Source of the DNA: a candidate division WOR-3 bacterium
Lineage (GTDB): Bacteria; Hydrothermota; UBA3073
DNA length: 64,000 nucleotides
Assembly (NCBI GenBank): GCA_023129165.1
Contig: JAGMCL010000039.1
Span: 1,839 to 65,838, forward strand
Direction of reading: 5' to 3'
In this document: one piece after another, positions 3,618 through 50,538 of the stretch
Numbering within the stretch: the first letter of the stretch is position 1
How the letters are laid out: each line of letters starts with the position of its first letter
Notes under the pieces: model-generated
The model's input: the letters and a program-made list of their open reading frames with translations, nothing else
Databases searched by the model: none
What the model was told of the DNA's origin: nothing
Program-made: the position numbers and the translations under genes

Positions 3618-3740
3618 ATGTAAATTATATCTTATTTTTGTATAATTGTCAAGAAAAAAATTATATTAATAATCAGGTGTATAATACATAGATATCATAT
3701 TATTAATTCATTATGGTTCAAAGATAGGTAAGAATCATAT

Positions 3741-3897
3741 TACAATGAGATTGCTTCGTCCGTCAAGAAGAGCTACGGACTCGCAATGACAGAGACTGTA
3801 ATGAGATTGTTCGTCCGTCAAGAAGAGCTACGGACTCGCAATGACACTTTTATTATCGTCATTGCGAGCCGCAGGCGAAGCAATCGCATTATTAAGG
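3741..3897. repeat. Intergenic repeat cluster: a tandem about 50 bp unit x2 ending in GGACTCGCAATGACA, an 11 bp-stem hairpin, and one copy of the dispersed GTCATTGCGAG...GAAGCAATCGCATTATTAAG element.
   Basis: 3741-3791 and 3799-3846 are near-identical. ctcgcaatgac (3835-3845) and gtcattgcgag (3858-3868) are inverted. gaagcaatcgcattattaagg (3877-3897) recurs at 10509-10528 and 46862-46874. Confidence 0.8.
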
Positions 3898-4094
3898 ACT
3901 AATGGAATAATATAAGGAATATAAACGAACTGCCTGCTATTTTGGCGTACACCATAGAGTATTCTATGGAGTGCCTGCCTGCGGTAGGCAGGCGTTAACC
4001 ATGTTAACGCATAGCTGTGACCCCATAGAGTATTTCTCCACAGGGTAAACGCGGTCACAGCACTCCAAAAATGGTTTGAGATAGTGCTGAGTAG

Positions 4095-33978: not shown

Positions 33979-34277
33979 TGTGTTCTCGTGTTCACCTAAC
34001 CTCCGTAGAATTTCTTACTACTTGCGAATAAGTATATATAATTTATACGGTATGTCAATGTTTTTTTGGCTTCATAAATCAACAAGATAATTGAGAGAGA
34101 ACAGGCAGAAAATGCCGGTTTCGGGCGAGGGAACTTTCGTAACCGGTAATTCCTGCTCTCAATCAAACAATTGCGATGCGGATTGACCAAAGGGCAAAAG
34201 GTATCAAGTCCACTACGAATAACGCCGAAGGCGGTTGAAGTCGGACGACTACAATTACCGAAGGTGAGAAATGGCAC

Positions 34278-34727
34278 TTATATATATTGCTTTAATTGCT
34301 TTTTTCTTCTCGCCAAAGCATTCGTAACTTCTTTGGCACATAATAGCGCGTCTTTCTTTATTTTGAAATCCCAAAATCTAAAAACTTTCCAGCCATCTTT
34401 TCTTAATTTTCTATTGACTCTTTTGTCTCGGGCGATATTGTCTTCGATTTTTTTGTACCAAAAACTTTTTCTGACTTTTATTTTTTTCTTTTCCTTCGAC
34501 CAATTGAAACCGTGCCAAAATGAGGAATCGCAAAAAACTGCAATCTTCTGCAGTCTCCAACAGAAATCGGGCGTGCCGAGTACACCCCTTTTATTTTTAC
34601 GATAGCCCCGCAAACCAGACGCCCAAAGCGCTCGCCCCATGATCTTTTCAATTTCGGTCCCTTTTGCCCTTACATGGGACATTTTGTAGGCGACAATTTC
34701 CTTTTTACTTCTCTTCAAATGAGTCAT
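34278..34727 (-). CDS. vsr: Very-short-patch repair endonuclease (T:G mismatch endonuclease).
   Basis: MSHVRAKGTEIEKIMGRALW...TPDFCWRLQKIAVFCDSSFWHGFNWSK...FWYKKIEDNIARDKRVNRKLRKDGWKVFRFWD matches the Vsr pattern (MS.IR.K.T.PE...R..L...G.R.......GKPD.V.P..K.A.FV.GCFWH.H.C......K....FW..K...N..RD......L...GW.VL.VWE). Confidence 0.8.
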   Translation of the reverse strand: MTHLKRSKKEIVAYKMSHVRAKGTEIEKIMGRALWASGLRGYRKNKRGVLGTPDFCWRLQKIAVFCDSSFWHGFNWSKEKKKIKVRKSFWYKKIEDNIARDKRVNRKLRKDGWKVFRFWDFKIKKDALLCAKEVTNALARRKKQLKQYI

Positions 34728-34749
34728 TACATATAAAGCTATTCTAGTA

Positions 34750-36636
34750 TCAACTATTTTTTATATCTACATAATCTTTTATTTTGCGGATGTTTTCTTC
34801 CCGAGTTCTTTTTTTATATTCCAATCTGTTACACATATCCTCGACTTTTGACGCAAATTTATCGCATTCAACCCTAGTCATAGATAAACCGTCTTTGGTT
34901 CGAATGCTAGTATGCCATTCAACATCTGTATTGAGAGGTCTAGCAGGTGTATGTCCCTTGATATTAAAAACCTTATGATCCCTACGTGTTATCCAACCAG
35001 CTCCAACTTCTGTTACAGCACCCCATGCTTTCGCCATATCTTTACTGGTTACATAAATAACATATATTTTTTCGGCTGAATAACTTTCAACGAAAAATGT
35101 TCTTAAATAATCATATACTTCTACCCCTTCAGGGATTCTGCTAATTTCATCATCACAATTTGTATATATGATATCTTCTGGAGGAACACGATTAAACAAC
35201 AATAAACTGTAGATAACGTCCGATAGGTCTTTGTCATCTTTTGTGTGGCATATTAGAATCTTCTTTTTCTGAGCATCTACCTTCTTTTTTATCCCAACGA
35301 TAGGAAGAAAAATATTCATCTCATCTTCAATGATTTTCTTCATTTTTGTCAATGTATTTTTATCACTTTGATTTATCATTTCGGTAATTCTCCTGGTCGC
35401 GCTACCAGATGTTTCTTTCTTATATTTATCAACCAATTTTCTTAGCTCTCTTTCTTTTTGTTCTTGTTTCTTTAATTTCTCTTTTTCTTTCTCCTCTTTG
35501 TGATAGTTAGCATAAACGGTTCTAATTTCGACAATGTCGGGTAATAATTTTTTGGCAACAAACGAAATCACTTCCTGATATCTCGGATCATCTGTTTTAT
35601 ATCCCTGCCGATTACTTAATGCCATATCCGGCAACTCTGTCTCTTCAAATAAATCCACATGAAGTTGACCAACAACATAAACTTCTTGAAGCTTATTTTT
35701 TCCGACAACGGGTAGTATATTATACTCACCAATTTTGCTATTGGATAACAACGAAATAAAATTGTCAGGAAAGTCGCCATGCATTGCTTTCCTTCCTCTT
35801 GTGGTCTTGTATGCGCCAACCCAACCTTTTATGATAAGATTGTATTCCTTTTCTTTTCCATCTTTATTTCTAAGTTTCATTGGCTTCTTTTTTTCTTTTC
35901 GCACTTGCAATAATTTCTTTTCTTTGTCTGGATAATCGTTATTAAAAAAGTTAGCCAAGTATTCAAAATCGCTACCAATAATAATTAGTCCCCCCAGTTG
36001 CTTAATCATTTCTCGATCAAAGCTTTTTATGATTTCCTCTTTGTCATTCTGGATTATATGTATTCTAAAATTTCTGTTTATAAGAGGGAATATTTTGAGT
36101 AGATTTTTCTTAATCGTCTCAAAGCTTTTATTCAATCCATAATGAGGCTCTTTCATTATTATTGAGGTACCGTGTTTTTTAATCTTTTCAAATCGCATGT
36201 CTTTCTCTTCCAAGGGATCCAGAATTCTGTCATCTCTAACGTATATTGTAAAAATGAATCCTAATTTTTTACCGTCTTTGATTGTCTGAACCCATATATT
36301 GTCCGAAACCGAAAGTGCTGCCAGTTTTCCAACGCCTTTTCTACCTATTTTCCGGCGCCCTTTTTTTGTATACGAATCTTTTTTTGTTGTACGAGTTTCA
36401 GCTGCCACATTCAAGTATATTTTTGTATCTTCATATGACATCCCAATTCCATCATCCTCAACAATAATGGAATCAGGTTTTGCTATAATATATACATTTC
36501 TTGCATCGGCATCATAAGCATTGGCAATCAACTCAGCAAGAATATAATAAATATTCGTGTAAAGACTTGGCCCCAATAACCTCAATATTTTAGGATCAAG
36601 TTGCAATTCATATTTACGTTCTGATTGGTTATTCAT
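34750..36636 (-). CDS. GHKL-superfamily ATPase (MORC/MutL-like HATPase_c_3) with a long Lys-rich middle region and an unassigned C-terminal domain of about 180 aa. Candidate restriction/effector partner of the adjacent Dcm.
   Basis: Bergerat fold boxes: N-box ELIANAYDADA, G1 DDGIGM, G2 GRKGVGKLAA. Lys/Glu-rich coiled-coil-like segment (EKEKEKLKKQEQKERELRKL). The C-terminal segment (KKKILICHTKDDKDLSDVIYSLLLFNRVPPEDIIYTNCDDEISRIPEGVEVYDYLRTFFVES...) begins like a TIR-like/alpha-beta nucleotide-binding fold, but I cannot assign it confidently. The gene overlaps the dcm stop by 4 nt. Confidence 0.6.
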   Translation of the reverse strand: MNNQSERKYELQLDPKILRLLGPSLYTNIYYILAELIANAYDADARNVYIIAKPDSIIVEDDGIGMSYEDTKIYLNVAAETRTTKKDSYTKKGRRKIGRKGVGKLAALSVSDNIWVQTIKDGKKLGFIFTIYVRDDRILDPLEEKDMRFEKIKKHGTSIIMKEPHYGLNKSFETIKKNLLKIFPLINRNFRIHIIQNDKEEIIKSFDREMIKQLGGLIIIGSDFEYLANFFNNDYPDKEKKLLQVRKEKKKPMKLRNKDGKEKEYNLIIKGWVGAYKTTRGRKAMHGDFPDNFISLLSNSKIGEYNILPVVGKNKLQEVYVVGQLHVDLFEETELPDMALSNRQGYKTDDPRYQEVISFVAKKLLPDIVEIRTVYANYHKEEKEKEKLKKQEQKERELRKLVDKYKKETSGSATRRITEMINQSDKNTLTKMKKIIEDEMNIFLPIVGIKKKVDAQKKKILICHTKDDKDLSDVIYSLLLFNRVPPEDIIYTNCDDEISRIPEGVEVYDYLRTFFVESYSAEKIYVIYVTSKDMAKAWGAVTEVGAGWITRRDHKVFNIKGHTPARPLNTDVEWHTSIRTKDGLSMTRVECDKFASKVEDMCNRLEYKKRTREENIRKIKDYVDIKNS

Positions 36637-37772
36637 AAATACCCCTCAAAATGTTTAATAATGCTTTTTCCGATTATCTCACCCAAGCGAACCGGCACAG
36701 CATTTCCTATGTACTTCCCCAATCTTTTAAGTTCTACCGGTGAAGTAAAAGGGATAAATTTATATTTTTTAGGAAAAGTTTGTAAAATTGCGCCCTCACG
36801 TATTGATATGGCTCGATCTTGTTCGGGGTGACCAAATCGTCCCGTCCCAAAACTAAAAAACTGTGTTGTAATCGTAGGTGCTGGTTTATCCCACTCCATC
36901 CTTGCATAAACAGAACCATATGTGTTGCCGGTTTCTTTTCTATGACAATCTGCTCTTAGATTCACATCCCAATCTCTCCATGAACCACCTGGTACCGATT
37001 TCTTTATTCTCTTGAGATTGACTTTCGAGAGAGTTGCCGATTTATGCAATCTATCTTTTTTTGATGAAGTACCGGCTTTAATTGGCTCTAAATTACCGGT
37101 AGCCATTTTGACTGTTTTATAATTTTCCGGCTTATGTGTCGGAGCTATTAATTTTATTTCTCCTAACTGCGAAGCCAATAATACCAACCTTCTTCTATTT
37201 TGTGGAATTCCGTAATCGGGGCAATAAACATTTTGCCAATTGATATAATACCCTTTTGATTTGAGACCGTCGACAAAATCGGAGAAAACTGTATGTTTAA
37301 TTATTTGAGGAACATTTTCCATCGAAACAACATCAGGTTCCACTTCCTTAATCAATTTTATAAAATGATAAAGCAATCCCCAATCGTCTTTAGTCTCTCT
37401 ATCTTTTTCCTTTTGAGTATACTTGGAGAATGGTTGACAGGGAGCACAACCTACCAAAACCATCAGACTTTCAGCAGGATATAGTTTTGAAATTTCCTTT
37501 GATGTGATTTCTTTGATACTCTTGTGAATAAACGATGCGCCATTATTCTCTTCAAATGCAAACTTACATTTTTCATCGACATCAACTCCGGCTACGACTT
37601 TAATACCTGACTTCTGCAAACCATAAGTCAAACCCCCAACTCCACAGAACAAATCCACCGCAACTATGGATAACTTCTTTCTTTTTCTAATCATTGCCTT
37701 TTCTTCCTCTCCACTAAAATTGTTTCTCATACCAGACCTTAATAATTCAATCATTGATTTCTTATTCCTCAC
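36633..37772 (-). CDS. dcm: DNA (cytosine-5)-methyltransferase, Dcm-type.
   Basis: Motif I (VDLFCGVGGLTYGLQKSG), motif IV PC (GCAPCQPFS), motif VI ENVPQI. Followed by the GHKL gene and vsr. Confidence 0.85.
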   Translation of the reverse strand: MRNKKSMIELLRSGMRNNFSGEEEKAMIRKRKKLSIVAVDLFCGVGGLTYGLQKSGIKVVAGVDVDEKCKFAFEENNGASFIHKSIKEITSKEISKLYPAESLMVLVGCAPCQPFSKYTQKEKDRETKDDWGLLYHFIKLIKEVEPDVVSMENVPQIIKHTVFSDFVDGLKSKGYYINWQNVYCPDYGIPQNRRRLVLLASQLGEIKLIAPTHKPENYKTVKMATGNLEPIKAGTSSKKDRLHKSATLSKVNLKRIKKSVPGGSWRDWDVNLRADCHRKETGNTYGSVYARMEWDKPAPTITTQFFSFGTGRFGHPEQDRAISIREGAILQTFPKKYKFIPFTSPVELKRLGKYIGNAVPVRLGEIIGKSIIKHFEGYL

Positions 37773-37778
37773 GATTAA

Positions 37779-39212
37779 TTATTTTATACTTAGCTTTTTT
37801 AATTCCGAGTCCATCCACATTTGGGCTTGCTGTTCGTCTTTTTCGATAGCCATTTCAACGCCTTGTTTAGCAATGTCAAGTAACCGCTTTGAAAACTCAC
37901 GATTGCAAAAGGAATCATTAACCGTTTCGGCGATTTTCTTTTGTTTCCCAATTGGTAAAACAGGAATAAGTGTATTCTTAACCTGATCCACACGCCAGTG
38001 ATTTATAACCGAACCACCAGCGTCACGCTCTATCTGTTTTTGTACAATTACCGAATTCAACACCAGTGTCAAATACTCTGGATATAATTTATCTTCATCT
38101 TCAACTGTTAACCGCAATATGCCACCTGACGGAATCATTTTTTCTGGCTCATCTTTCAAATAATATGCAATGCCCGGAGTGGCGTCTTTTGATAACAATA
38201 TTTCACCCTTTTTCGGTTGATTTTGTTTTATTGTCCTGTATAATTCCTCGCTTAAATACTGTTGATTGCCATCCTTTAAGCCAAACTTTGAAAGATTGCT
38301 CACGCGCAAGAATAAAATTCCACTTTCTTGATATGCTCCACTTCCGGGCTCAATACATTTATTAATCGAGACTAAATCACCCAAACAATAATACCCTTTT
38401 GTTGAGATAATCCTTTGTACTATCTCATCATACACAGGCTGAAAGTACTCGGCATCATTTCGATCTGCGGATTGCGTGTCGGAGTAATTCTTCACAAATG
38501 AAAGCCGATGTTTCGGCCTCCAGTTTAACAAGTTAAGCTCGGATAAGAGCATCTGCTCGGCTTGAGAATAAAAAAGATGAGCAGATTGAATTTTATTGAA
38601 TGCTTTTGTGACTAAACCTGAGACAACTTTATAAAATATATCTAAAAAAACAGGTAAGCGTAAATTCTCAATGTCAGAAACATTTAATTTTGGCTGTGCG
38701 TTTCCGCTGATCAATCTTAATACTTGTATTTGACCAATTTTAGAATTTAAGTGGGATAAAATATAGTCTCTATAAAAATCCGGTAAATTCTCCGGTAATC
38801 TTATTCCAAGATTATTCTCGCTTATATTACAATTGCCGATTTCGGGTGTTACTTTTGAAACAACACCAATTGTATTACCAACTTTTGAAAGAACTAAGTC
38901 CCCAATTTTTAGTTGAGACGATGTGAGTCTTTTATTATCTTCTTCAGATATATAAATCAAATCATCTTTGGATATAAAAAAATCTTTTAAATCGGATATT
39001 CTGACAAATGGTATCCCGTTTGTTAGATATGCTTCGCTTTTTAAAGATGAGCCGAATGGTCCACTTACGACCTTACACCCTATCTCTTTTAATGTTTTTC
39101 CATGACGCTGGCTAATAATGCTTTCATACTTTAAGGCAGTAGGGTGAAAATATTCAGCATCAAGCCTGAATATACCTTTTACATCTTTAAATTTTACAAC
39201 TGAATATTGCAT
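37779..39212 (-). CDS. hsdS: Type I-like restriction-modification specificity subunit with two target-recognition domains.
   Basis: 477 aa with duplicated Methylase_S architecture: two variable TRDs separated by the conserved central/distal repeats (LSELNLLNWRP and the C-terminal EMAIEKDEQQAQMWMDSELKKL coiled coil). N-terminus typical of HsdS (GIFRLDAEYF...). Confidence 0.8.
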   Translation of the reverse strand: MQYSVVKFKDVKGIFRLDAEYFHPTALKYESIISQRHGKTLKEIGCKVVSGPFGSSLKSEAYLTNGIPFVRISDLKDFFISKDDLIYISEEDNKRLTSSQLKIGDLVLSKVGNTIGVVSKVTPEIGNCNISENNLGIRLPENLPDFYRDYILSHLNSKIGQIQVLRLISGNAQPKLNVSDIENLRLPVFLDIFYKVVSGLVTKAFNKIQSAHLFYSQAEQMLLSELNLLNWRPKHRLSFVKNYSDTQSADRNDAEYFQPVYDEIVQRIISTKGYYCLGDLVSINKCIEPGSGAYQESGILFLRVSNLSKFGLKDGNQQYLSEELYRTIKQNQPKKGEILLSKDATPGIAYYLKDEPEKMIPSGGILRLTVEDEDKLYPEYLTLVLNSVIVQKQIERDAGGSVINHWRVDQVKNTLIPVLPIGKQKKIAETVNDSFCNREFSKRLLDIAKQGVEMAIEKDEQQAQMWMDSELKKLSIK

Positions 39213-39214
39213 AG

Positions 39215-40051
39215 TTATTTATTAGTTATTTGAAAGATCGCCAACTTCAAAACCTGCCAGCATAATTTAGCCGTGTGCTCATCTGGATTAAATTGCTGAT
39301 TTGCTTGCTGATATGGGTGAATATAATTTCTAAAATCTCTCAATGAATGGCTGAATTTCTTTACATCTTCTTTTAAAAACCCAATTTCCTTAGCAACATC
39401 TATAAAATTACTTAGCGTCCATTTATGAAATTGTAAAACTTTTCCGTTTTTATCTTTTGGACTGGTTTTTGCCATATTGAATTTTTGCGGATTGCTTGTT
39501 GCAACACCAAGCAATATTCCTTCAAGCGTGCTTCCGCATAGAAAGATTGTTGCTAAAGCCGCTTTTGAATTTAAGCATTTTTTAATTTCTTCAAGTCTCT
39601 GCTCAAGTATACTCGTTATTATCCCATCTAATTTTAACGAACCAATTGAAACTTCATTAAATTCCTTTTTTAAAAATTCATCCTCTGTAATGTTTTTGTT
39701 TTGCGTTTGTTTACCAAGCAATCTATCACTAATCTTCTTAGCCTTGTCAATAAGATTTTGAGGGAAATCGTTTTGTTGAAGATTGTCAATTAAAATTTGG
39801 TTTTCAATGTACTCAACAAGTTTTTCTATAGATTTGCCAACTAAAGAATCGCCAGCCACTTGCCAAAAACCTCTCATGCAATTGGCTTTTGATCCGCTTG
39901 CATAGTTATATTTTTCATCGTAGATATTAATGCCGACATCATCATTAAAAAACTCCCCCATTGTCCTATCGGAGAAATTAAGGACATAACCTCCGCTCAT
40001 TTGAAAAAGCTTCTCTAACGCTTGCTTATCGTTTGTAGTTAGACTTGCCAT
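39215..40051 (-). CDS. HEPN-like (Abi/DUF4145-like) protein inserted between hsdM and hsdS.
   Basis: The C-terminal about 120 aa (ALATIFLCGSTLEGILLGVA...KFSHSLRDFRNYIHPYQQ...AKLCWQVLKLAIFQI) contains an R-x(4-6)-H HEPN-type motif in an all-helical context. The position between M and S genes matches the known tendency of HEPN/Abi genes to embed in type I RM operons. The N-terminal 150 aa is unassigned. Confidence 0.35.
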   Translation of the reverse strand: MASLTTNDKQALEKLFQMSGGYVLNFSDRTMGEFFNDDVGINIYDEKYNYASGSKANCMRGFWQVAGDSLVGKSIEKLVEYIENQILIDNLQQNDFPQNLIDKAKKISDRLLGKQTQNKNITEDEFLKKEFNEVSIGSLKLDGIITSILEQRLEEIKKCLNSKAALATIFLCGSTLEGILLGVATSNPQKFNMAKTSPKDKNGKVLQFHKWTLSNFIDVAKEIGFLKEDVKKFSHSLRDFRNYIHPYQQANQQFNPDEHTAKLCWQVLKLAIFQITNK

Positions 40052-40054
40052 GGA

Positions 40055-42145
40055 CTATCTCCAAAAACTTAATTTCTCTTTTTTCGCCCAATCAATAAAC
40101 GCTTCGGCAATACCATCTGCAAGCTCGCCGTTGTGATTTTGCAAGTCATGATCCACAATCAAATGACCAAATTTATCCAACATAGGCTTACCGTCACAAT
40201 TTTTGACATAAATATAATCCCCTGAATTATCTTTCCCCGCCTTCTCTGATACACCAAAAAATATTGGGTAATCTTTCTGTTTGGGACATAATTCATCATC
40301 CCATTTCTGAACGAACAACATGCTTGTCTTTGTGCCGGTATGAGGTTTAAAAGTATTTACATGCAGACCCACAACCGCAATGATTCGCGCCTTATCGGCA
40401 ATATATTCCCGAATGTCTTTATCCGATGTATTGTTAAATCTTCCTTGAGGTAAAACAATCGCCATACGTCCACCGGGCTTGATAAAATCAAGATTACGCT
40501 CGATAAAAAGAATATCCCGACCGACCTTTGACTTGGGCTTGTTTTTATTATTATAACCAAGCTCGTATTTATGGATTATACGGGATTCCTTAATATCTCC
40601 GGCAAAGGGTGGATTTGCCATCAAAATATCAAACAGAAAATCTGTATTTCCTTCGCTGTTTTTTTTCAATTCTTTTAAACGCTTATATCCGCCTCCATAA
40701 GTCTCGATCCAATTCGGATTTTTCGTTGTCTCGTCCCAACGGTCATAATCAAGTGTGTTTAAATGTAAAACATTTGTCTCACCGTCTCCTGCAATGAGAT
40801 TTAAGGTGCGTGCCACACGCACCACTTTCTCGTCGAAATCGATGCCGAACACTTTCAATACATCTTCTTTTTCTTCGGCAGATATCTCCTTGTTTTCGAA
40901 CAAATGGCCAGTTAAATAAAAAATTGTATGAACGGTAAATCCGCAGGATCCGGCAGCAGTATCGATCATATATTCGCCCTTTTTGGGATTGAGCATCTTA
41001 ACGCACATATCGATTACGTGACGAGGCGTAAAATACTGCCCTTTTTCACCTTTGGAAGATTTGCTGACCAAATATTCGAATGCCTCATCGATAACCTGTA
41101 AATTGGAATTGAAAAGCTTTACGTCTTGAAGGCTCGATATACATATGGAAAGATGCGAAGGTGAAAGATCGATTTTACTTTCATCGGGAAACACACCGGT
41201 CCATTTCCTTTTTGCTTCATCGAATAGCTTTTGAATTTTCTTTTTTAATTCTCCTTCCGACTGACCGGTATTCCTGAATTCCAGGATCCTGAACGATGAA
41301 TCATCCACCCCTTGAATAGCTTCTTTGATTTCATCGAATGAATTTTCTTTCGGCTTTCCATATTTAGCTTTAGGCTCGGCAATCATAGGATAATCTTTAT
41401 CCCTTAAAAAATAATTTATAACCACCCTATCCTTCTGGCTTTTGTGTTCATCATATAATTTAGTGAATATCAGCTTAAAAACTTCTTCGAATACATCGAC
41501 TCCAGCATTGGCAAGAACCTCATCTTCCATATCCTGGATAATCGTCTTGAGGGATTTCCCCTCCGAAGGAATTTTATCTTTGATAATTAGGTCTTTAATC
41601 GTATATCGTTCTTTAAGGATATCCGCAAGAGTCTGACTGGCATTTGGAATATCGGTTATATCCTCGAAAAAATTAGGGTCTTTGCGGTTATAATGGGAAA
41701 TCTGACCTCCGTTTGTCCATACGGCTATAGGCGCACCAGTAGCATTACAATAACTCTTGAGCTGTTCCTTGCCATCTTTCAGCTTGGGTTTTTTAACCTC
41801 GATGATGATATATTCGATGGTCGGACGCTCTTTATCGAAAACTACGATATCGGAAGATTTCGTCTGCCGTCCAAACTGCACAGGATGCTCGAATCTAATT
41901 CTTTTCTTGGGATAGCCATAATAATTTATCAATTTTGCAGTATAAAGCTGGCGTACGACTTCTTCGGGTTTAAGTTGAATTTCCTTTTCTCGAATTATGC
42001 ACTCCACATATAGCTTGCCTTTTTTTTCGATAATCTTTTTCTCAAGAACCGTTATTTCTTCAGGCGCAAATATCGAAAGATTGTATTGTGAATCTTTTAA
42101 TATGGAAAGCAGAGTAATTTTATCGTCACTTTTTGCCATAAACAC
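40055..42145 (-). CDS. hsdM: N6-adenine DNA methyltransferase (HsdM-like, gamma class) fused to an N-terminal PD-(D/E)xK (HSDR_N-like) nuclease domain.
   Basis: N-terminal about 170 aa: ...SDIVVFDKERPTIEYIIIEVKKPKLK (D...E-V-K nuclease signature) within an HSDR_N-like fold. Then the HsdM N-domain and catalytic domain with motif I (IDTAAGSCGF) and motif IV NPPF (MANPPFAGD). 696 aa, versus about 500 aa for a plain HsdM. Confidence 0.75.
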   Translation of the reverse strand: MFMAKSDDKITLLSILKDSQYNLSIFAPEEITVLEKKIIEKKGKLYVECIIREKEIQLKPEEVVRQLYTAKLINYYGYPKKRIRFEHPVQFGRQTKSSDIVVFDKERPTIEYIIIEVKKPKLKDGKEQLKSYCNATGAPIAVWTNGGQISHYNRKDPNFFEDITDIPNASQTLADILKERYTIKDLIIKDKIPSEGKSLKTIIQDMEDEVLANAGVDVFEEVFKLIFTKLYDEHKSQKDRVVINYFLRDKDYPMIAEPKAKYGKPKENSFDEIKEAIQGVDDSSFRILEFRNTGQSEGELKKKIQKLFDEAKRKWTGVFPDESKIDLSPSHLSICISSLQDVKLFNSNLQVIDEAFEYLVSKSSKGEKGQYFTPRHVIDMCVKMLNPKKGEYMIDTAAGSCGFTVHTIFYLTGHLFENKEISAEEKEDVLKVFGIDFDEKVVRVARTLNLIAGDGETNVLHLNTLDYDRWDETTKNPNWIETYGGGYKRLKELKKNSEGNTDFLFDILMANPPFAGDIKESRIIHKYELGYNNKNKPKSKVGRDILFIERNLDFIKPGGRMAIVLPQGRFNNTSDKDIREYIADKARIIAVVGLHVNTFKPHTGTKTSMLFVQKWDDELCPKQKDYPIFFGVSEKAGKDNSGDYIYVKNCDGKPMLDKFGHLIVDHDLQNHNGELADGIAEAFIDWAKKEKLSFWR

Positions 42146-42463
42146 CTCGTTTCTTCAAAAACTTTTCGATGTGATAGGACTGTATCTTGTTAGGATTGTT
42201 GGAATGTCAATATGTACAACATATTATAACACGAAACTCAGAGAATGTCAAGCAATTGAGTTAAATTGTCGTATTACTAAACTATACAATAGTTTACAAC
42301 AATTTTATGGTTCATAAATGGACAATTCTCAAGAATTTTTTAGTGTTTTTCGGATTAGATTCAAGATACATAATAATCAATACTGAAGAATTTAGAAACA
42401 GGTCTTCCAGTATGAAGAGTGAAGAAACAATTGTAATCTGCGGCAATCTGCGTCCTATTATTC

Positions 42464-44011
42464 TCACACCTTCTCTGTTATAGCCTTTGCCTGGAGGAAA
42501 AAGAGAAGATAATCCCTTGAGCCTGTTTTCGTATCAGTTCCAGAAAGGTTAAACCCGCCAAAAGGATGAACTCCTACAAGAGCACCTGTGCATTTTCTGT
42601 TTATATATAGGTTTCCAACATGGAATTCTACCTTTGCCCTTTCTATCTTTTCTCTGTTATTTGTATATACTGCACCAGTTAGTCCATAATCCGTACCATT
42701 TGCTATATCCATAGCATCATCGAAATCCTTTGCGGGTATGACTGCAAGTACTGGACCAAATATCTCTTCCTGTGCTATTCTTGCGTTGGGGTTTAAATCG
42801 GTTATTATAGTGGGCTTTATATAGTATCCATCGCCTTCAGCAGGTTCACCACCAAGAACGAGTTTTCCTTCTTTTTTACCAACTTCTATATATTCAAGAA
42901 TGCTTCTATATGCCCGTTCATTTATTACTGCACCCATGAAGTTTTCAGGGTCTTCTGGTGGTCCTTGTTTTATCTTCTTTCCTTTTTGTACAAGTTTATC
43001 GATGAATTCGTTGTAAATTTCATCAAGAACTATAGCTCTTGAACAGGCTGAGCATTTCTGACCCTGGTATCCAAATGCTGCTACAATTACTCCATTCACT
43101 GCAGAATCAAGGTCTGTTTCAGAATCCACTATAATCGTATCTTTACCACCCATCTCAGCTATAACTCTCTTTATCCATTTCTGACCTTTGGATAGTTTGG
43201 CAGCAAGCTCCACTATTCTTAGGCCTACTGCCTTAGAACCTGTAAATGTTATAAATCGTGTCTTTGGAGAATTCACAAGAATATCACCAATCTTACCTCC
43301 GCTTCCTGGTAGGTAGTTTACAACACCATCAGGTACACCAGCTTCCTCAACGATTTCCATGAACTTCGCACCTGTAACAGGAGAATCACTTGATGGTTTT
43401 AAAACAACAGTGTTACCTGCTCCAAATGCAGCGGCTGTCATACCAGTAAGTATAGACATTGGAAAGTTCCAGGGTGGTATAGATACTCCAACTCCAAGTG
43501 GTATATACCACATCTCAGGCTTTTCACCAGGAAATGGAGTTATATCGCCTCCCTTACCGTATCTAATGACCTCCCTGGCATAATAGTCAAGAAAGTCTAT
43601 TGCTTCTGCAATATCTCCATCTGCCTCAGGCCAGGATTTTCCAACTTCATATACGAGCCAGGCATCAAGTTCGTATCTCATTCTTCTCATTATATCTGCC
43701 ATTTTAAAGAGGTATTCTGCTCTTTCCTCTGCTTTTGTATATCTCCATTTTTTAAAGGCCTCCGTTGCTACTTCGAGTGCTCTCTCTGCGTCTTCTACAG
43801 ATGAGTTCTCAACTATTCCTACAACATCGTCCTTGTGGGATGGATTTATAGATTTTATAGGTGTTACAATTTTACCTTTCTTTCCCCCGATTATGTTGGG
43901 ATACTCTTTGCCCAATTCACCCTTTACTTTTGTCAGGGCATTCTGCATCATTTTTTTATTCTCGTCGTTTTTGAAGTCTATAATAACTTCGTTTTTGAAA
44001 TCTCCCCTCAT
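42464..44011 (-). CDS. rocA: L-glutamate gamma-semialdehyde (1-pyrroline-5-carboxylate) dehydrogenase, aldehyde dehydrogenase family.
   Basis: 515 aa. The N-terminus (KNEVIIDFKNDENKKMMQNALTKVKGELGKEYPNIIGGKK) matches RocA/PruA. Catalytic Cys region (GQKCSACSRAIV) and Glu (AEMGGKD). Confidence 0.8.
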   Translation of the reverse strand: MRGDFKNEVIIDFKNDENKKMMQNALTKVKGELGKEYPNIIGGKKGKIVTPIKSINPSHKDDVVGIVENSSVEDAERALEVATEAFKKWRYTKAEERAEYLFKMADIMRRMRYELDAWLVYEVGKSWPEADGDIAEAIDFLDYYAREVIRYGKGGDITPFPGEKPEMWYIPLGVGVSIPPWNFPMSILTGMTAAAFGAGNTVVLKPSSDSPVTGAKFMEIVEEAGVPDGVVNYLPGSGGKIGDILVNSPKTRFITFTGSKAVGLRIVELAAKLSKGQKWIKRVIAEMGGKDTIIVDSETDLDSAVNGVIVAAFGYQGQKCSACSRAIVLDEIYNEFIDKLVQKGKKIKQGPPEDPENFMGAVINERAYRSILEYIEVGKKEGKLVLGGEPAEGDGYYIKPTIITDLNPNARIAQEEIFGPVLAVIPAKDFDDAMDIANGTDYGLTGAVYTNNREKIERAKVEFHVGNLYINRKCTGALVGVHPFGGFNLSGTDTKTGSRDYLLFFLQAKAITEKV

Positions 44012-44328: not shown

Positions 44329-45012
44329 TTATAGCAATTTCTCAGATGCAAAGCTGAAGTATTTATTATCTCCAATTATAATATGGTCCAAAACCCTAAT
44401 ATCTACTGGGTTAAGTGCATTTACAACATCTTGAGTTATCGTTTTGTCTTCAGGTGATGGGGTTGGATCTCCTGATGGATGGTTGTGTACGAGAATGACA
44501 GAACTTGCGTTCTTTTTTAAAGCAGTTTTTACAATTTCCCTGGGATAAACAGCTGATGAGTCGACTGTTCCATTAAATAGATTATCTATATCAAGTAGCC
44601 TGTTTTTGATATCTAAAAAAAGAATTTTGAAGACCTCTTTTTTAATACCTCTCATTGAAACATATAGATAGTCAAATACATCCTGTGGATTTTTATAAAC
44701 ATCATTCTTTAAAATTTTATCTTTGAGATATCTTTCTGTTACCTCTTTTATTAATCTTATACCGAAGATATTTTTAGGACCTATACCACATACCCTCCGT
44801 AGCTCATCAGGTTCTCCCTCTATAACACCACGCAATGTCTTGAATTTTTTTATAAGTATCTTGGCTTCTTGTTTACAATCCTTTCTCGGAGTACCAAGGG
44901 TTAGTAAGAGTTCTACAATCTCATAATCATGCAACCCTAATAGTCCCGACATAATAAATTTATCTCGCAGTCTCTTCCTATGTCCTTCTCTGGTATCCAT
45001 AATAGATATCAA
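44329..45012 (-). CDS. radC: RadC-like JAB/MPN domain protein (UPF0758).
   Basis: C-terminal JAMM-like motif (ASSVILVHNHPSGDPTPSPEDKTITQ) plus the N-terminal helix-hairpin-helix region typical of RadC. Confidence 0.8.
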   Translation of the reverse strand: MISIMDTREGHRKRLRDKFIMSGLLGLHDYEIVELLLTLGTPRKDCKQEAKILIKKFKTLRGVIEGEPDELRRVCGIGPKNIFGIRLIKEVTERYLKDKILKNDVYKNPQDVFDYLYVSMRGIKKEVFKILFLDIKNRLLDIDNLFNGTVDSSAVYPREIVKTALKKNASSVILVHNHPSGDPTPSPEDKTITQDVVNALNPVDIRVLDHIIIGDNKYFSFASEKLL

Positions 45013-45047: not shown

Positions 45048-45773
45048 CTACACCTCAAAAACATTTATAACCTCTTCCCCAAGCATATCAATGATTTTTA
45101 CTGCAACTTGGGTTTTAGATTCTGGGATTTCAATTTCATATTTTCCTTTTACTAAGTCGTTTTTTCTTTCTGGAACATCGGAGTAAACGATATGGAAGGT
45201 TTTGCCATCGTAATTTTTATCAATTAAAACTGTATCAATCATAGATCTATAATCGGGGATTTTTACCTTGAAGAGTTTATTGTCAATGTTAAGACGTTCA
45301 ATTATTGTGGGAGAGATAAAGTTCTGAATCTCCACTAATGTCTTTGTCTTATCAATCCTTTCAACTTTTATTTTTGCTTCTGCGGGCTTGTGGATTAAGA
45401 AATTACCATATTTTTTATTTGTCTTTAACTCAATTACTTTAATCTTATTTACAGGATGTTTCTTGTTCCACTCATCAATCCAGGGGTCAACCGCTAATTC
45501 TTTGCCAAGACAGACAATAGTTATATCCCTATCTTCAGTTGGTCTTTTCTTTAATTCATCTTGAAGAAGTTGTAAGTCAAGAAGTGTTAGGGGATGATTA
45601 AAATCAATAATTTTTACGAGATTTTTCCCTAAATATCCATCAAAAAATCTATCGGTTCGTGTCCTTTGAATTCCAATATGCTGGACTGCAAGTTCAATTG
45701 CCTCGGTTTTTAAAAGTTGCAAATCATAGTCGTTAACCTTATAGATACCGAAAGAATAATACTTCTTACACAT
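45048..45773 (-). CDS. Hypothetical protein in the defence operon; unassigned.
   Basis: 241 aa. Overlaps the upstream DUF1016 gene by 8 nt. I recognise no motif. Confidence 0.3.
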   Translation of the reverse strand: MCKKYYSFGIYKVNDYDLQLLKTEAIELAVQHIGIQRTRTDRFFDGYLGKNLVKIIDFNHPLTLLDLQLLQDELKKRPTEDRDITIVCLGKELAVDPWIDEWNKKHPVNKIKVIELKTNKKYGNFLIHKPAEAKIKVERIDKTKTLVEIQNFISPTIIERLNIDNKLFKVKIPDYRSMIDTVLIDKNYDGKTFHIVYSDVPERKNDLVKGKYEIEIPESKTQVAVKIIDMLGEEVINVFEV

Positions 45774-46800
45774 CTTTTGCCTCCAGTTTTAATTGTGCAG
45801 TTTGTATGGCTTTATGTAATTTTTCAGCAAATAATTCTTTTGGTGGCAATTTTGTCAGGTATTCCGCTACTTTTATTCTATCCTTTGGTAAAAATAGAAG
45901 TTCTATCTGCTCTTTACCTTTTTCAGCACAGAGTATAAGTCCAACAGGTGGATTCTCTCCTTCAAGCATTTCATATTTCTCTAAATATCTGAGATAAAGT
46001 TCCATCTGACCTTTGTAGTCTGCTTTAAATTTCCCAAGTTTTAAGTCTATCACTATGAAGCATCTTAATTTTCTGTGGTAAAATACCAAATCCATATAGT
46101 AATCCTCGTTATCAACAGTAATTCTTTTCTGTCTTGCCACAAAATAGAAATCTTTTCCTAATTCAAGGATAAATTTCTCAAGGGCATTCAATATTGCTCT
46201 TTCTAAATCTCTTTCACTATAAGTATCGCTGAGTTCTAAAAAGTCCAATACATAAGGGTCTCTAAAAACTAATTCTGGTGTCATTTTGTCTTTTTCTTTT
46301 AGTTCTTTTAATTGCATTTTTATAGTCTTTTCTGGAAGTTTTGACAATGCGGTTCTTTCATAAAGCATACTATTCATTCTTTCCTGAAGTGTGCGTGTGC
46401 TCCAGTGTTCTTTCAAGCATAAGGTAGCGTAAAATTCTCGTTTTAATTTATCTTTTGTTGGCAAAAGAGTTCTAATATGTGTCCAACTCAGCCCTTCTAA
46501 TTCTCCACGCAGTGCGTGGAGAATTGGGTAGCTTTCATATAACTGAATCATATACCACAAATTTTGTGTTGAATATCCTTTACCGTATTTTTGTGTTAAT
46601 AGTGAACTAACCGAGTTCACTATCTTTTTCCCATACTCAGCCCTATATGACTTTATTATCTCTTCTTTGACTGTCTTACCTATGTTCCAGTAGAGCAACA
46701 CCATCTCCTGATTGATAGTAGTGGCAACTTTTCTTCTTGCCTGTTCTATCAAGCCAGAAATTTTGTCAAACAGACCTTTACCTTTCTCAATTTTATTCAT
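45766..46800 (-). CDS. DUF1016/YhcG-family PD-(D/E)xK nuclease-fold protein.
   Basis: Matches the YhcG pattern: N-terminal helical domain (LSWTHIRTLL) and C-terminal PDDEXK core (GKDFYFVARQKRITVDNEDYYMDLVFYHRKLRCFIVIDLKLGKFKADYKGQMELYLRYL). Confidence 0.7.
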   Translation of the reverse strand: MNKIEKGKGLFDKISGLIEQARRKVATTINQEMVLLYWNIGKTVKEEIIKSYRAEYGKKIVNSVSSLLTQKYGKGYSTQNLWYMIQLYESYPILHALRGELEGLSWTHIRTLLPTKDKLKREFYATLCLKEHWSTRTLQERMNSMLYERTALSKLPEKTIKMQLKELKEKDKMTPELVFRDPYVLDFLELSDTYSERDLERAILNALEKFILELGKDFYFVARQKRITVDNEDYYMDLVFYHRKLRCFIVIDLKLGKFKADYKGQMELYLRYLEKYEMLEGENPPVGLILCAEKGKEQIELLFLPKDRIKVAEYLTKLPPKELFAEKLHKAIQTAQLKLEAKDV

Positions 46801-47957
46801 TAACTAATTCCTTTTTTTTGATTTGTTGAAGTTCTTCCACTGTCATTGCGAGGCATAGCCAAAGCAATCGCATTTTTTATCTGCTCTTGTATTATTCCCT
46901 GCAATCTCTTGCTCGTTATCTGAATTGCTCCCTTGTTTATATCACACCCAATCCATCGCCTGCCAAGTGCTTGGGCAACCGCAAGAGTTGTGCCTGAACC
47001 GATGAAGCAGTCAAGGACTATTCCATTTTCATTGGAAGCGGCTTTTATAATACGCTTAAAAATCATATCATGCTTTTGTGTTTGAAAACCCGTTTTACTA
47101 TCACCCCTAATCGCTGGTACTTCGATAAAATTATCTGCTTTTTCTTCATAAACTAAAAAGTACCTTATTTTACCGTCTTTATCTCTGATCCTTTCTGCTT
47201 TGCCCATTTTTTCATTCCATTGATGCATACTTGCTTTTCTTGGCTTATCTAACTTTTCGTAAACTTCATTGTAGATATGTGATCCTTTATGTTTTGCGTA
47301 CCATAGAATATTCTCTGTATTTTGATGAAATTTCTTCGATTTCGCCTTTAGTCCCACAGCTGTATAATGAACAATCACTTCATTTAAAAAGTTATCTTCA
47401 CCGAATATTTCATCTATGAGCAGCTTTACATAGTGAGCCATACGCCAATCCAGGTGCACATAAATAGAGCCTGTATCTGCTAACAACTCCTTTAAAAGTA
47501 TCAATCTCTCATACATAAACTGCAAATAAGTATCATTATTCCAAATATCAAAATACATTGTCTGTTGTAAGATAGATGCTTCATCTTCTTCTATCCGCCC
47601 TAAATTTTTTAGTCCTCTGAGTTCAACTTTTCTTACATAATCCGCCCCGCTTTTAAATGGTGGGTCTATATAAATCAAATCAATCTTTCCTCTGAATCCT
47701 AATTCAAGAAGTGTTGCTAAAATATCCTTATTATCTCCGTGAAATAGTAAATTATGCCAATTATCTTTGAGATTCTCATATGAGATTGCTTCGCCTTTGG
47801 CTCGTAATGACAAATCGCCTGGCGGGTCAAAGACTTCTACAAGTTGGGCAGGAAATCCTTTAACATAATCGAGCGGCTTTTTACCTACCCAGTTAAGCAT
47901 TGGTCGTCCTTTAGCAGAAGAGATTTTGATTTTATTTTCTGCCATTATAGCCCCCAT
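46800..47957 (-). CDS. Beta-class N6-adenine/N4-cytosine DNA methyltransferase (Type III Mod-like; short).
   Basis: N-terminal LNWVGKK. Motif IV DPPF (IDLIYIDPPFKSGADY) precedes motif I near the C-terminus (LDCFIGSGTTLAVAQALGRRWIGCDIN), which is beta-class order. The last about 25 codons overlap a dispersed repeat copy. Confidence 0.75.
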   Translation of the reverse strand: MGAIMAENKIKISSAKGRPMLNWVGKKPLDYVKGFPAQLVEVFDPPGDLSLRAKGEAISYENLKDNWHNLLFHGDNKDILATLLELGFRGKIDLIYIDPPFKSGADYVRKVELRGLKNLGRIEEDEASILQQTMYFDIWNNDTYLQFMYERLILLKELLADTGSIYVHLDWRMAHYVKLLIDEIFGEDNFLNEVIVHYTAVGLKAKSKKFHQNTENILWYAKHKGSHIYNEVYEKLDKPRKASMHQWNEKMGKAERIRDKDGKIRYFLVYEEKADNFIEVPAIRGDSKTGFQTQKHDMIFKRIIKAASNENGIVLDCFIGSGTTLAVAQALGRRWIGCDINKGAIQITSKRLQGIIQEQIKNAIALAMPRNDSGRTSTNQKKGIS

Positions 47958-50538
47958 ATTTATATATTGCTTCTCTAACTTTATTCAAACCTTCAAAAGT
48001 TAGTTGCTCCCCCTTCGTCTCTACAATTTCATACTTCAATCTATCAGGGTTCAGTCCTTCAATTCTTCTCATTTCCTTTTCCTTTGCTTCATCTTTAAAT
48101 CGTTCAGCTTTTATCTCAATGATTAGCATTTTGCCATTTTTCCTTCTTATTAAAAAATCAGGTGAGTAATTATGATACCCGCCATCTTTACCTTTATATT
48201 CAAAGAGAAAATCGGTCTTTTTAGGGTCGTCAATTGCTCCTGTAAAATAAACATCCTCAACATCTGCTGGGTTTTCATTTAACATTGCTAACAGTTGCTG
48301 GAAGAAATCTACTTCAGGATTAGAATCAAACTTATAGGGATTATAGTGAAAACCAAAATCTCGTTTATTTAATTCTTTAAATTCCTCATACCTTTTAAGC
48401 AAATGTTCTTTATCTTTGTGATAAATTATTTCTGTCACATAGTTCTCATCTTTCTTATTGAAACCAGCAGTTTTCACAAGTGCCAATGCAGACTCAACTT
48501 CTTCCTCTATTATTTTATAATTTTTTAGTTGTCTCTCAATTTGTTTTTTAATTTCATGGGTATCATTGCTGGACATTTCTCCATCAGGATATAAATTCTT
48601 TAGTTTTTCATGTACTGGCATAAGCGGTAATCTATACAGAGCTGAAAGCTCAACAGCAAAAGAATAGGCATCAACAAAATCTTCTTCTGTTATTAGTTTT
48701 TCATCTTTCTGTGCTATCAAAACACCTTTTCTATCAGGAATTTCTTTTAGGTCATAGAAAATCTTTTTGACCTCATCTATAGAAATATCAGGTTTTTGTA
48801 ATTCTATTTGAGTGATATCAATTTCTTTATCAACTGGGATAACTTTTTGAATCTTTTTTCTGAGTAAAACGGGTGGTATCTCCACTTTTCTTAAAATTAG
48901 TCTATCCTTTCTTATATCTTGTGGAGTTCTATTTAAATCTTCAAGAGTTTCACCATAGGTCTCTTTAAGTTGTGTGTCTAAAATTCCGACATTATCTTTT
49001 GAAAGGTAGATTTTTGCCTTGTGTATATTGCCAGTAGTTTGTCTGAGGCAGCGGGAAGCAGCTTGAAGGCAAAAGTTATTACTTGCTGTCAGTTTTCGTG
49101 CTAAGGCAGTAGAAAAAAGAGATAAGCAATTCCATCCCTCAGTCCCTTTATTAACAAGAAGAAAAATGCGGTAAAGTAGGTGTGGGTCATTTATTCGGTT
49201 ATCAAATAAATCCTTAACCTCTTGTTTTGACTCATTATGCACTTCTAAAACTATAGAAGGATCAAAGCCGAGCTCTATTAAGGTTTTTTCAACAACTGGC
49301 TTGGCATTTGTTAAATCCTCTATTTTTGGAAAATATATTGCCAGTTTAGAAGGACTACCATCATAGATCTTTACATCTTTATAACTCTTAAAGAAATCTG
49401 TAATAACATCTTTTAGAAAATCTCTATCCGTTACTTCTGAATAAGATACAATATTGCCCCGGACTTCTTTCAATATTCCATCTTTTATCCCTTGCGATAG
49501 ACCATACCAACAAACAACATCTTTAAGGATCTGTCTTTTATAATATGGAGTCCCAGTGGTGTTTACCACAACTAAAACATTTGTCTCTTCTGATAAATAA
49601 TTAACTGTTTGTCTCACTCTCTTCAGTTCTTTACCGAGTGCCAGTCCATAGGTATGGTGTGCTTCATCAGAAAAGATAGCAAGATTTGGAAGAGAGGCAA
49701 TTGTTTGCAATCTCTGATTGGCTATCACCTCCTTTACCTCATCTTCTCGGGATGGGTCAACAAATAAATCTTTGATTAAAGATTTGGTTATTGATTGTTT
49801 TTGTATTCTAATCTTTTCTGTATTAGTTACCACGATATTATAACTTGAACCTTTGATTATTGGAATGTCTTTTTCGCCATCGCGAGTATAGGTAAATTTT
49901 GTAGTGGTTATAAACTGTTTATAAAGCCTTTCAGGCAATATTTTCTCATAAGGAACATCCGATAGCTCTTTTAATGCTCCTAAGATGGTCTTGCCTGGCG
50001 CAAATACCAGGGCATTTTTGACAAAGTAATCCTCTGGATATTCAAGAGCCATTGCAAATTCTGTAGCGATAATAGCGCCAATTAAAATGGTCTTACCTGC
50101 TCCCATCGCCAATGCTAATATGTAGCTGGAGTAAGACAGGATTAGTGTTTCTCTGAGAGCTTGTAACCTATATTTTTTTACAAAGGCGTCGTCGTCTCTT
50201 ATTTTTTTAAATATTGAATTTATTCCGCCACCAGAGATAGCAATTTTTTTCCAGTCTTCATCTGTTAGTTTAATACCCAGAGCATCTAAAAGGTCATTTG
50301 GAGGAAAGATTTTTTTGTATAAATCAAAAATATGTGGAGTTTTTTCAATGAGTCTTAAATACCAGTAAGTTTCAAGGGCATCAAATTGGGCTTTTCGTAA
50401 GAAACGAAGGTTTTGGGTTCCTGAATTATAGTTGAAATTGAGAATTTCACCAATAACAGAATACCCTGTATTATAACTGTTATTTCTCCATTCAGACACT
50501 CTTGTTCTTAGTGTATCATGTAAATACATAACAGGCAA
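47932..50538 (-). CDS. SF2 helicase with a C-terminal PD-(D/E)xK nuclease motif (Type III Res-like restriction subunit).
   Basis: Walker A (AMGAGKT), DEAH box (FSDEAHH), motif III (TGTP), motif VI (QAASRCLRQ). C-terminal YSPDFLIRRKNGKMLIIEIKA (D...E-I-K). Overlaps the methyltransferase start by 26 nt. Confidence 0.65.
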   Translation of the reverse strand: MPVMYLHDTLRTRVSEWRNNSYNTGYSVIGEILNFNYNSGTQNLRFLRKAQFDALETYWYLRLIEKTPHIFDLYKKIFPPNDLLDALGIKLTDEDWKKIAISGGGINSIFKKIRDDDAFVKKYRLQALRETLILSYSSYILALAMGAGKTILIGAIIATEFAMALEYPEDYFVKNALVFAPGKTILGALKELSDVPYEKILPERLYKQFITTTKFTYTRDGEKDIPIIKGSSYNIVVTNTEKIRIQKQSITKSLIKDLFVDPSREDEVKEVIANQRLQTIASLPNLAIFSDEAHHTYGLALGKELKRVRQTVNYLSEETNVLVVVNTTGTPYYKRQILKDVVCWYGLSQGIKDGILKEVRGNIVSYSEVTDRDFLKDVITDFFKSYKDVKIYDGSPSKLAIYFPKIEDLTNAKPVVEKTLIELGFDPSIVLEVHNESKQEVKDLFDNRINDPHLLYRIFLLVNKGTEGWNCLSLFSTALARKLTASNNFCLQAASRCLRQTTGNIHKAKIYLSKDNVGILDTQLKETYGETLEDLNRTPQDIRKDRLILRKVEIPPVLLRKKIQKVIPVDKEIDITQIELQKPDISIDEVKKIFYDLKEIPDRKGVLIAQKDEKLITEEDFVDAYSFAVELSALYRLPLMPVHEKLKNLYPDGEMSSNDTHEIKKQIERQLKNYKIIEEEVESALALVKTAGFNKKDENYVTEIIYHKDKEHLLKRYEEFKELNKRDFGFHYNPYKFDSNPEVDFFQQLLAMLNENPADVEDVYFTGAIDDPKKTDFLFEYKGKDGGYHNYSPDFLIRRKNGKMLIIEIKAERFKDEAKEKEMRRIEGLNPDRLKYEIVETKGEQLTFEGLNKVREAIYKYGGYNGRK

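Follow-up and report, generated by a model that had tools for sequence, protein, structure and literature searches.

Can a DNA methyltransferase and its specificity subunit make up a complete restriction system when no HsdR translocase is encoded beside them? This question is raised by two minus-strand genes in a 64-kb stretch of DNA, hereafter the window, from a candidate division WOR-3 bacterium (contig JAGMCL010000039.1, assembly GCA_023129165.1; positions below are those of the window). The first gene, M, encodes a methyltransferase of 696 amino acids (aa) and the second, S, its putative specificity subunit. Our analysis suggests that the locus is probably a self-contained, translocase-less restriction-modification (RM) enzyme of the Type IIB "RM + S" kind, with a third gene, X278, as mobile HEPN-like cargo.

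M and S belong to a tandem run of six minus-strand genes, whose spacing ranges from -4 to +22 nucleotides (nt), in the order M, a 278-aa open reading frame (ORF), S, a C5-cytosine methylase, a GHKL-ATPase protein and Vsr. An original prediction, made from the DNA letters, had identified both genes of the M-S span correctly, but it described a two-gene operon and missed the 278-aa ORF (X278) wedged between them. The features of the three genes are the following:

40055..42145, minus strand: RM subunit gene (M), 696 aa from a GTG codon; Pfam HSDR_N_2, N6_Mtase and Eco57I; PADLOC PDLC03034, 982 bits
41645..41968, minus strand: N-terminal PD-(D/E)xK nuclease domain of M (aa 60-167; E86, D99, E116, K118), HSDR_N_2
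41096..41644, minus strand: helical connector from nuclease to methylase (aa 168-350), predicted mostly helical with low model confidence; conservation 0.65
40166..41095, minus strand: gamma-class N6-adenine methyltransferase domain of M (aa 351-660), N6_Mtase
40058..40165, minus strand: C-terminal tail of M with one predicted helix (aa 679-689) in the AlphaFold2 (AF2) model, confidence <50 there; tail conservation 0.77
39215..40051, minus strand: X278, 278-aa cargo gene; two-domain helical protein, C-terminal half (~aa 140-278) DUF4145/HEPN-like
37779..39212, minus strand: S (specificity) subunit gene, 477 aa; Pfam Methylase_S
Parts of S, minus strand (layout): first target recognition domain (TRD1) ~38643-39212, first conserved region (CR1) 38478-38642, TRD2 37917-38477, CR2 37782-37916

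To place M in its family, one genome per species was scanned, which gave more than 572 loci. Of these, 80 loci with proteins 65-97% identical to M were retained. Gene linkage was assessed in 88 related loci (89 counting the window), and residue conservation in 80 distinct relatives out of these 88 loci. Because the relatives of M measure 694 aa, the true start of M is probably not the GTG but the ATG two codons downstream, at 42139.

The domain content of M was determined with Pfam, which assigned aa 60-167 to HSDR_N_2 (E 2.6e-27) and aa 351-660 to N6_Mtase (E 1.2e-34). The expected motifs were found at aa 98-104 (SDIVVFD), 113-119 (IIIEVKK), 372 (FTPR), 395 (DTAAGS) and 511-514 (NPPF). The Pfam scan of M gave no HsdM_N match, the N-terminal part being HSDR_N_2 instead. 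These domains and motifs bear out the original description of the 696-aa protein as a PD-(D/E)xK domain placed N-terminal to a gamma-class methylase carrying NPPF.

The closest solved structure to M in the PDB is RM.BsaXI, a Type IIB enzyme, with an E-value of 1.1e-17 for the single sequence and 1.1e-22 for the family profile. In both searches BsaXI ranks ahead of all Type I HsdM chains, the best of which reaches 2e-14. A Foldseek search with the M model also returned BsaXI first (E 3.7e-10); because this model is poor, the ranking is suggestive only and the template-modelling (TM) scores are uninformative. The nuclease segment of BsaXI is itself an HSDR_N_2 member (Pfam, E 8.6e-10, above the cut-off), and the connector of M partly aligns with BsaXI residues 260-360. 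In BsaXI, the substitutions E73A, D90A, E105A and K107A each abolish cleavage (PMC11997821). The profile alignment pairs E73, D90, E105 and K107 with E86, D99, E116 and K118 of M. Among the 80 relatives, E86, E116 and K118 are kept in all and D99 in 79. Mean column conservation is 0.77 for the nuclease domain vs 0.79 for the methylase domain, in which NPPF, F372/T373, D395 and G399 are invariant. With catalytic residues this close to invariant and a conservation that equals that of the methylase, the nuclease domain is, judging from its sequence, intact and under purifying selection; a decayed remnant would not show such conservation. The original prediction had itself raised the prospect of a degenerate N-terminal domain, against which the four residues, each kept in 79 or 80 of the 80 relatives, speak.

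We then sought a motor subunit. A Pfam scan of every ORF of at least 450 aa revealed no HsdR in the window. Its sole superfamily 2 (SF2) helicase is a Type III Res (47932-50538), which adjoins its own Mod gene. In the 88 related loci, all ORFs of at least 550 aa were checked for a DExH motif and the candidates were submitted to Pfam. This screen caught its two positive controls, a genuine HsdR (locus L104) and the Type III Res of the window. Not a single HsdR candidate was found within the available flanks of these 88 loci, 42 of which span at least 20 kb, and the Pfam-annotated contigs agree. Eight large DExH neighbours were rejected as HsdR (a TOTE helicase, a Type ISP enzyme, RecG, ClpB, UvrC, DNA polymerase III tau, one without a Pfam match), and two further large neighbours scanned by Pfam showed no HsdR domains. 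The earlier statement that no SF2 HsdR lies in the operon or nearby holds for the window and, within the available flanks, for the related loci.

The M family is large and widespread. It has at least 8000 matches at an E-value of 1e-20 or better among clusters at 90% identity, and the best 120 matches are 76-95% identical to M and come from many phyla. The 80 retained loci include bacteria of the candidate phyla radiation (CPR), Poribacteria, cyanobacterial relatives and one Methanoperedens archaeon. M is unusually conserved for a gene of a restriction system, which implies, at the level of sequence, frequent horizontal transfer under strong purifying selection. Proteins 65-97% identical to M were observed across Omnitrophota, Elusimicrobia, CPR/Patescibacteria, Poribacteria, Nitrospirota, Planctomycetota, Gastranaerophilales, a mussel symbiont and the Methanoperedens archaeon. 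In the related loci, S lies downstream of M on the same strand, either adjacent or parted from it by cargo alone, and in roughly half of them the gap is at most ~130 nt. A more distant separate M and S pair, at 55% identity and without HsdR, is carried by a Klebsiella IncF plasmid. The closest relative, in a Candidatus Stahlbacteria metagenome-assembled genome (locus L059, 97% identical), has its M frame broken into ORFs of 500 aa and 188 aa (2899-4988), which represents either an inactivating frameshift or an assembly error. On the 3' side of S, the same locus carries an 817-aa ORF with no Pfam match in place of the module of Dcm, restriction endonuclease and Vsr.

Some relatives of M are fused to a specificity domain. 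Among representatives of clusters at 50% identity, single-chain proteins 60-69% identical to M combine the Pfam domains HSDR_N_2, N6_Mtase and Methylase_S (for example P0244, P0247, P0252, P0248 and P0256). These fusions measure 1139-1210 aa, with room for two TRDs, or ~906 aa, with one. A single chain of nuclease, methylase and specificity domains is the other known layout of Type IIB enzymes (PMC11997821). The joining of all three in one chain argues, from sequence, that nuclease, methylase and specificity activities can work together without further subunits. One fusion, WP_012308631, is a 1179-aa protein 60% identical to M that is encoded on plasmid pAQ6 of Picosynechococcus PCC 7002 (L098, 7001-10540), a cultured and genetically tractable host. 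A published methylome of PCC 7002 lists bipartite N6-methyladenine (m6A) motifs without an assigned enzyme, such as GGA(N5)CTTC, and connects none of them to the pAQ6 fusion (PMC12362590).

The S protein has the features expected of the partner of such an enzyme. Its two halves align with each other at 31% identity (E 1e-12), which gives two TRDs, and the PADLOC Specificity_I models match it in two stretches. Together with the Methylase_S match, these homologous halves confirm the partner as an HsdS with two TRDs, as first proposed. A search of S against the PDB gave a single marginal match and none that is Type IIB-specific. Among 64 distinct S proteins, all from loci in which M is at least 65% identical, TRD1 of the window is found at 50% identity or more in 3 and TRD2 in 25. 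In two of the loci closest to the window, L059 (Stahlbacteria, M 97% identical) and L001 (95%), TRD2 is common with the window and TRD1 is not. This distribution shows, on sequence grounds, that TRDs shuffle among loci, as expected of a working specificity subunit.

The third gene, X278, starts 3 nt past the stop codon of M and ends 2 nt before the start of S, and it reuses a Shine-Dalgarno-like GGAG within the last codons of M; in locus L001 the gap between M and S is 4 nt. An X278 homolog occupies this position in 2 of the 89 loci, namely the window and L019 (81% identical). It is absent from the 97%-identical Stahlbacteria locus, and in the relatives of M at 95-97% identity M is followed directly by S. 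Elsewhere, relatives of X278 stand alone or on an integrative element, and others neighbour Type III systems or lie within a classical Type I locus. Because it is present in only 2 of 89 loci, we conclude from gene content that X278 is mobile cargo rather than a restriction-enzyme subunit.

X278 belongs to a family of more than 5000 unnamed proteins, 60-95% identical across phyla and of a near-constant 277-282 aa. Of 52 aligned family members, 50 match the Pfam family DUF4145 (PF13643) at E <0.1, the best at 2.8e-5. R238, R241, N242 and H245, within the segment LRDFRNYIHP, are invariant in the 52 sequences, and R238-x6-H245 fits the Arg...His motif (Rx4-6H) expected of HEPN. The AF2 model of X278 has a predicted local distance difference test score (pLDDT) of 86. 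The N-terminal domain (~115 aa, helical), in which a GSKA...R...W segment is invariant, matched nothing in the libraries scanned. Neither PADLOC nor NCBIfam matches X278, and its one PHROGs match, to a family labelled "DNA binding protein", is marginal (E 0.0013). The HEPN family DUF4145 is frequent in operons with RM systems (PMC3710099), and RAZR, a DUF4145 protein, is an abortive-infection RNase (PMC13017515). X278 is most likely a HEPN-type RNase effector, as predicted from these residues and matches.

Other genes are found at the same position. Both M and S were found in ~80 loci, and in 33 of these (~40%) the interval between them contains one to three co-oriented genes. Of the 41 slot proteins, 8 are DUF4145; AAA_15/AAA_21 proteins, some with an OLD-like TOPRIM domain, are also present. 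The remaining families include YhcG/DUF1016, Fic, PIN, RhuM, a DpnII-MboI nuclease, PDDEXK_3, Schlafen AlbA_2, a Pycsar-type effector (PycTM) and AbiU2. The cargo of the slot outside the window thus spans more than 20 unrelated families, many of a defence type. X278 was considered as one of the eight clear DUF4145 cargos and rejected: the X278-family profile found L019 alone among the slot proteins. In loci L009-L088 the insertions were precise to the M-S junction. The junction could be a dedicated slot for exchangeable, translationally coupled defence genes, which would make RM + S a widely transferred carrier of second-line effectors. X278 would then be a new suicide RNase of the HEPN type, with its activity or dosage coupled to the restriction enzyme; it could, for example, be set off once restriction is inhibited or bypassed by a phage, in the manner of PrrC with EcoprrI. 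We regard this extended scenario as conceivable but doubtful.

Several observations weigh against a self-contained Type IIB enzyme with HEPN-like cargo. The identity between M and BsaXI is low, ~17% over the Foldseek alignment, and the two nuclease domains aligned alone give a weak score of 8.7 bits. The full-length AF2 model of M is poor (pLDDT 51), and the domain arrangement thus lacks structural footing; pLDDT reaches 72-92 over ~aa 11-120 and is lower beyond, so that the first half of the nuclease domain alone is confident. This is probably due to an alignment limited to sequences 76-95% identical. M probably lacks the C-terminal paddle of BsaXI, because it measures 696 aa vs 916 aa, and this paddle plays a part in cleavage by BsaXI (PMC11997821). 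Among named families in NCBIfam, the nearest models are Mad2 for M (E 3.4e-90, 303 bits, cut-off 720) and Mad5 for S (E 1.3e-41, 143 bits, cut-off 400), both of the MADS system, in which defence requires five more genes besides the homologous M/S pair (bioRxiv 10.1101/2023.03.30.534895). The 64 kb of visible genome leave room for an unlinked partner. For the cargo gene, X278 itself matches DUF4145 at 17.6 bits (E 0.004), below the gathering cut-off of 23.1, and its structure comparison gave no significant match.

The pair might act as a sequence-specific adenine methyltransferase (M2S) only, with the N-terminal domain serving as a non-catalytic DNA-binding or regulatory module. This would agree with the public labels, in which relatives of M are called "N-6 DNA methylase" or "type I restriction enzyme M protein", and with PADLOC, where they appear as Type I methyltransferases. 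Near-invariant catalytic residues, in a domain conserved as the methylase is across 80 species of many phyla, are hard to explain for a dead remnant, however, and the modules are located in variable defence islands; we find a methylase-only pair quite unlikely. The MADS matches lead to another reading, in which M and S would merely recognise and modify DNA for a dispersed Type I or MADS-like system whose effector, an unlinked HsdR or MADS-like partners, is encoded elsewhere. PADLOC adds to these matches, as its mad2 model aligns to aa 61-657 of M, spanning the N-terminal domain and the methylase, and its mad5 model also matches. In MADS, a homologous M/S pair gives no defence alone and relies on additional effectors, which keeps this reading alive within a view limited to 64 kb. 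The scores nevertheless fall far under the NCBIfam cut-offs, a scan of ten proteins around the locus matched mad2 and mad5 but none of the other mad models, and MADS itself was therefore rejected. No HsdR or recurrent large partner appeared in the 88 loci, and the single-chain fusions argue for self-sufficiency. We consider a dispersed system unlikely.

The tight packing of the operon allows a three-component M-X-S system, in which X278 would be an integral third subunit, for example an RNase or regulator activated by the RM complex. The gaps of 3 nt and 2 nt and the reused GGAG fit this arrangement, which recurs in L019. Such a subunit would be expected beyond 2 of 89 loci, though, and the closest relatives of M do without it; more than 20 unrelated families take its place elsewhere, and its own relatives occur alone or in other types of RM system. 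An integral X278 is thus highly unlikely. A self-contained RM + S enzyme carrying X278 as cargo accounts better for these observations, and the original proposal of a BcgI-like or Type IIB-like arrangement is supported by the kinship with RM.BsaXI, the catalytic residues, the absence of HsdR and the fusions. On sequence criteria, the locus would be best described as an uncharacterised, very widespread member of the already known Type IIB kind.

By analogy with BsaXI and BcgI, two RM chains would bind one S, which would read a bipartite asymmetric site; the contact would probably be made by the C-terminal helix of RM with the S conserved regions. Type IIB enzymes of the RM + S group use a lone helix at the C-terminus of RM to bind these regions (PMC11997821), and the helix predicted at the end of M may play the same role. 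Each methylase domain would flip and methylate one adenine per half-site, using S-adenosylmethionine (AdoMet). On unmethylated DNA, the tethered nuclease domains would cleave outside the site, a fixed short distance away and probably on either side of it, with no need for ATP-driven translocation. Swapping of TRDs would change the specificity. X278, probably translationally coupled, could add a second, abortive-infection layer of defence.

The M family is routinely annotated as a plain methylase or as a Type I M subunit. If our interpretation is true, a substantial share of the "incomplete Type I" or "orphan M+S" calls in metagenomes would be complete restriction systems, and free shuffling of the TRDs would make the family rich in new bipartite specificities. 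Its 696-aa member M, probably devoid of the paddle, could help to understand how Type IIB enzymes cut both strands, a point left open by the BsaXI structure paper. The cargo slot and the X278 family are candidate new abortive-infection elements.

The locus is surrounded by other defence genes and by a possible promoter, listed here with their coordinates:

42223..42251, minus strand: promoter-like site 5' of the RM gene (consensus match alone)
36633-37772, minus strand: C5-cytosine methylase; second, separate system tightly packed downstream of S
34750-36636, minus strand: GHKL-ATPase protein of the BbrUII/HgiDII restriction-enzyme family, 628 aa; residues 380-558 also match PADLOC SpbK (E 1.9e-15)
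34278-34727, minus strand: Vsr of the same second system
45048-50538, minus strand: four-gene overlapping block with Type III Res (868 aa), a short Mod (385 aa), a YhcG/DUF1016 PD-(D/E)xK protein (344 aa) and a 241-aa ORF
44329-45012, minus strand: RadC/JAB-domain gene, flanked by the Type III block and by a proline-pathway dehydrogenase gene, the one preceding M

The promoter-like site reads TTGACA-17-TATAAT, a perfect match at 12 of 12 positions with TG preceding the -10 hexamer. The site, the top-scoring one in 34000-42600, ends ~78 nt upstream of the GTG of M. In the window, no small helix-turn-helix (HTH) ORF of the kind expected for a controller gene fits the 318-nt gap upstream of M, which has the promoter-like site instead. 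A 74-77-aa HTH_3 gene overlaps the start of M in two close relatives, L002 (156-389) and L003 (140-364), which suggests a controller protein in these loci. The 241-aa ORF of the Type III block has no match in any library scanned. The block (~5.6 kb) is absent from the syntenic Stahlbacteria contig L059, which has ~9 base pairs (bp) instead (L059, 74-124); because of this absence, the miaB-radC interval is a variable defence island. An N-terminal fragment of RadC (UPF0758_N) was observed directly upstream of M in L005-L007.

Among known systems, the closest comparison is BsaXI (PDB 8w0p/8w2p/8w2q; PMC11997821). In both, an N-terminal HSDR_N_2-type nuclease with the four catalytic residues, a helical connector and a gamma-class methylase are joined in one chain, which works with a separate two-TRD S subunit and no translocase. 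BsaXI differs in its length of 916 aa, with a "knob" and a C-terminal "paddle", and M is, by its sequence, too distant from it to claim membership of the same sequence family beyond the shared domains. The A subunit of BcgI, at ~637 aa, is similar in size to M. The likeness to BcgI, BaeI, BveI and other RM + S Type IIB enzymes is by description alone, as these have R, a helical connector, M with an EcoKI-like methylase fold and a lone C-terminal helix (PMC11997821). Single-chain R-M-S enzymes of Type IIB/IIG are represented by the fused relatives, whereas the window encodes S separately with X278 in between.

MADS is an 8-gene, 22-kb operon that reads a bipartite site and in which Mad6, Mad7 and Mad8 are mandatory in its authors' model (bioRxiv 10.1101/2023.03.30.534895); the pair of the window scores below half of the equivalog cut-offs. 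The classical Type I enzymes EcoKI and EcoR124I (HsdR2M2S) share with our locus the TRD1-CR1-TRD2-CR2 layout of HsdS and the gamma-class HsdM-like catalytic domain. Their nuclease domain sits on HsdR, in contrast with the fusion to M seen here, and a classical Type I system was excluded because there is no HsdR in the loci examined and no HsdM_N match in M. For X278, RAZR / PD-T7-4 and other DUF4145 HEPN proteins resemble it in their C-terminal DUF4145-like helical domain, their invariant Arg and His and their nature as single-gene elements of defence islands; unlike RAZR / PD-T7-4, X278 has no zinc-finger domain. PrrC is an anticodon nuclease, not a DUF4145 protein, that is embedded as an RNase-type suicide effector in the EcoprrI Type I locus, beside hsdR. 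X278 would parallel it as a predicted RNase-type gene inside a restriction-modification operon.

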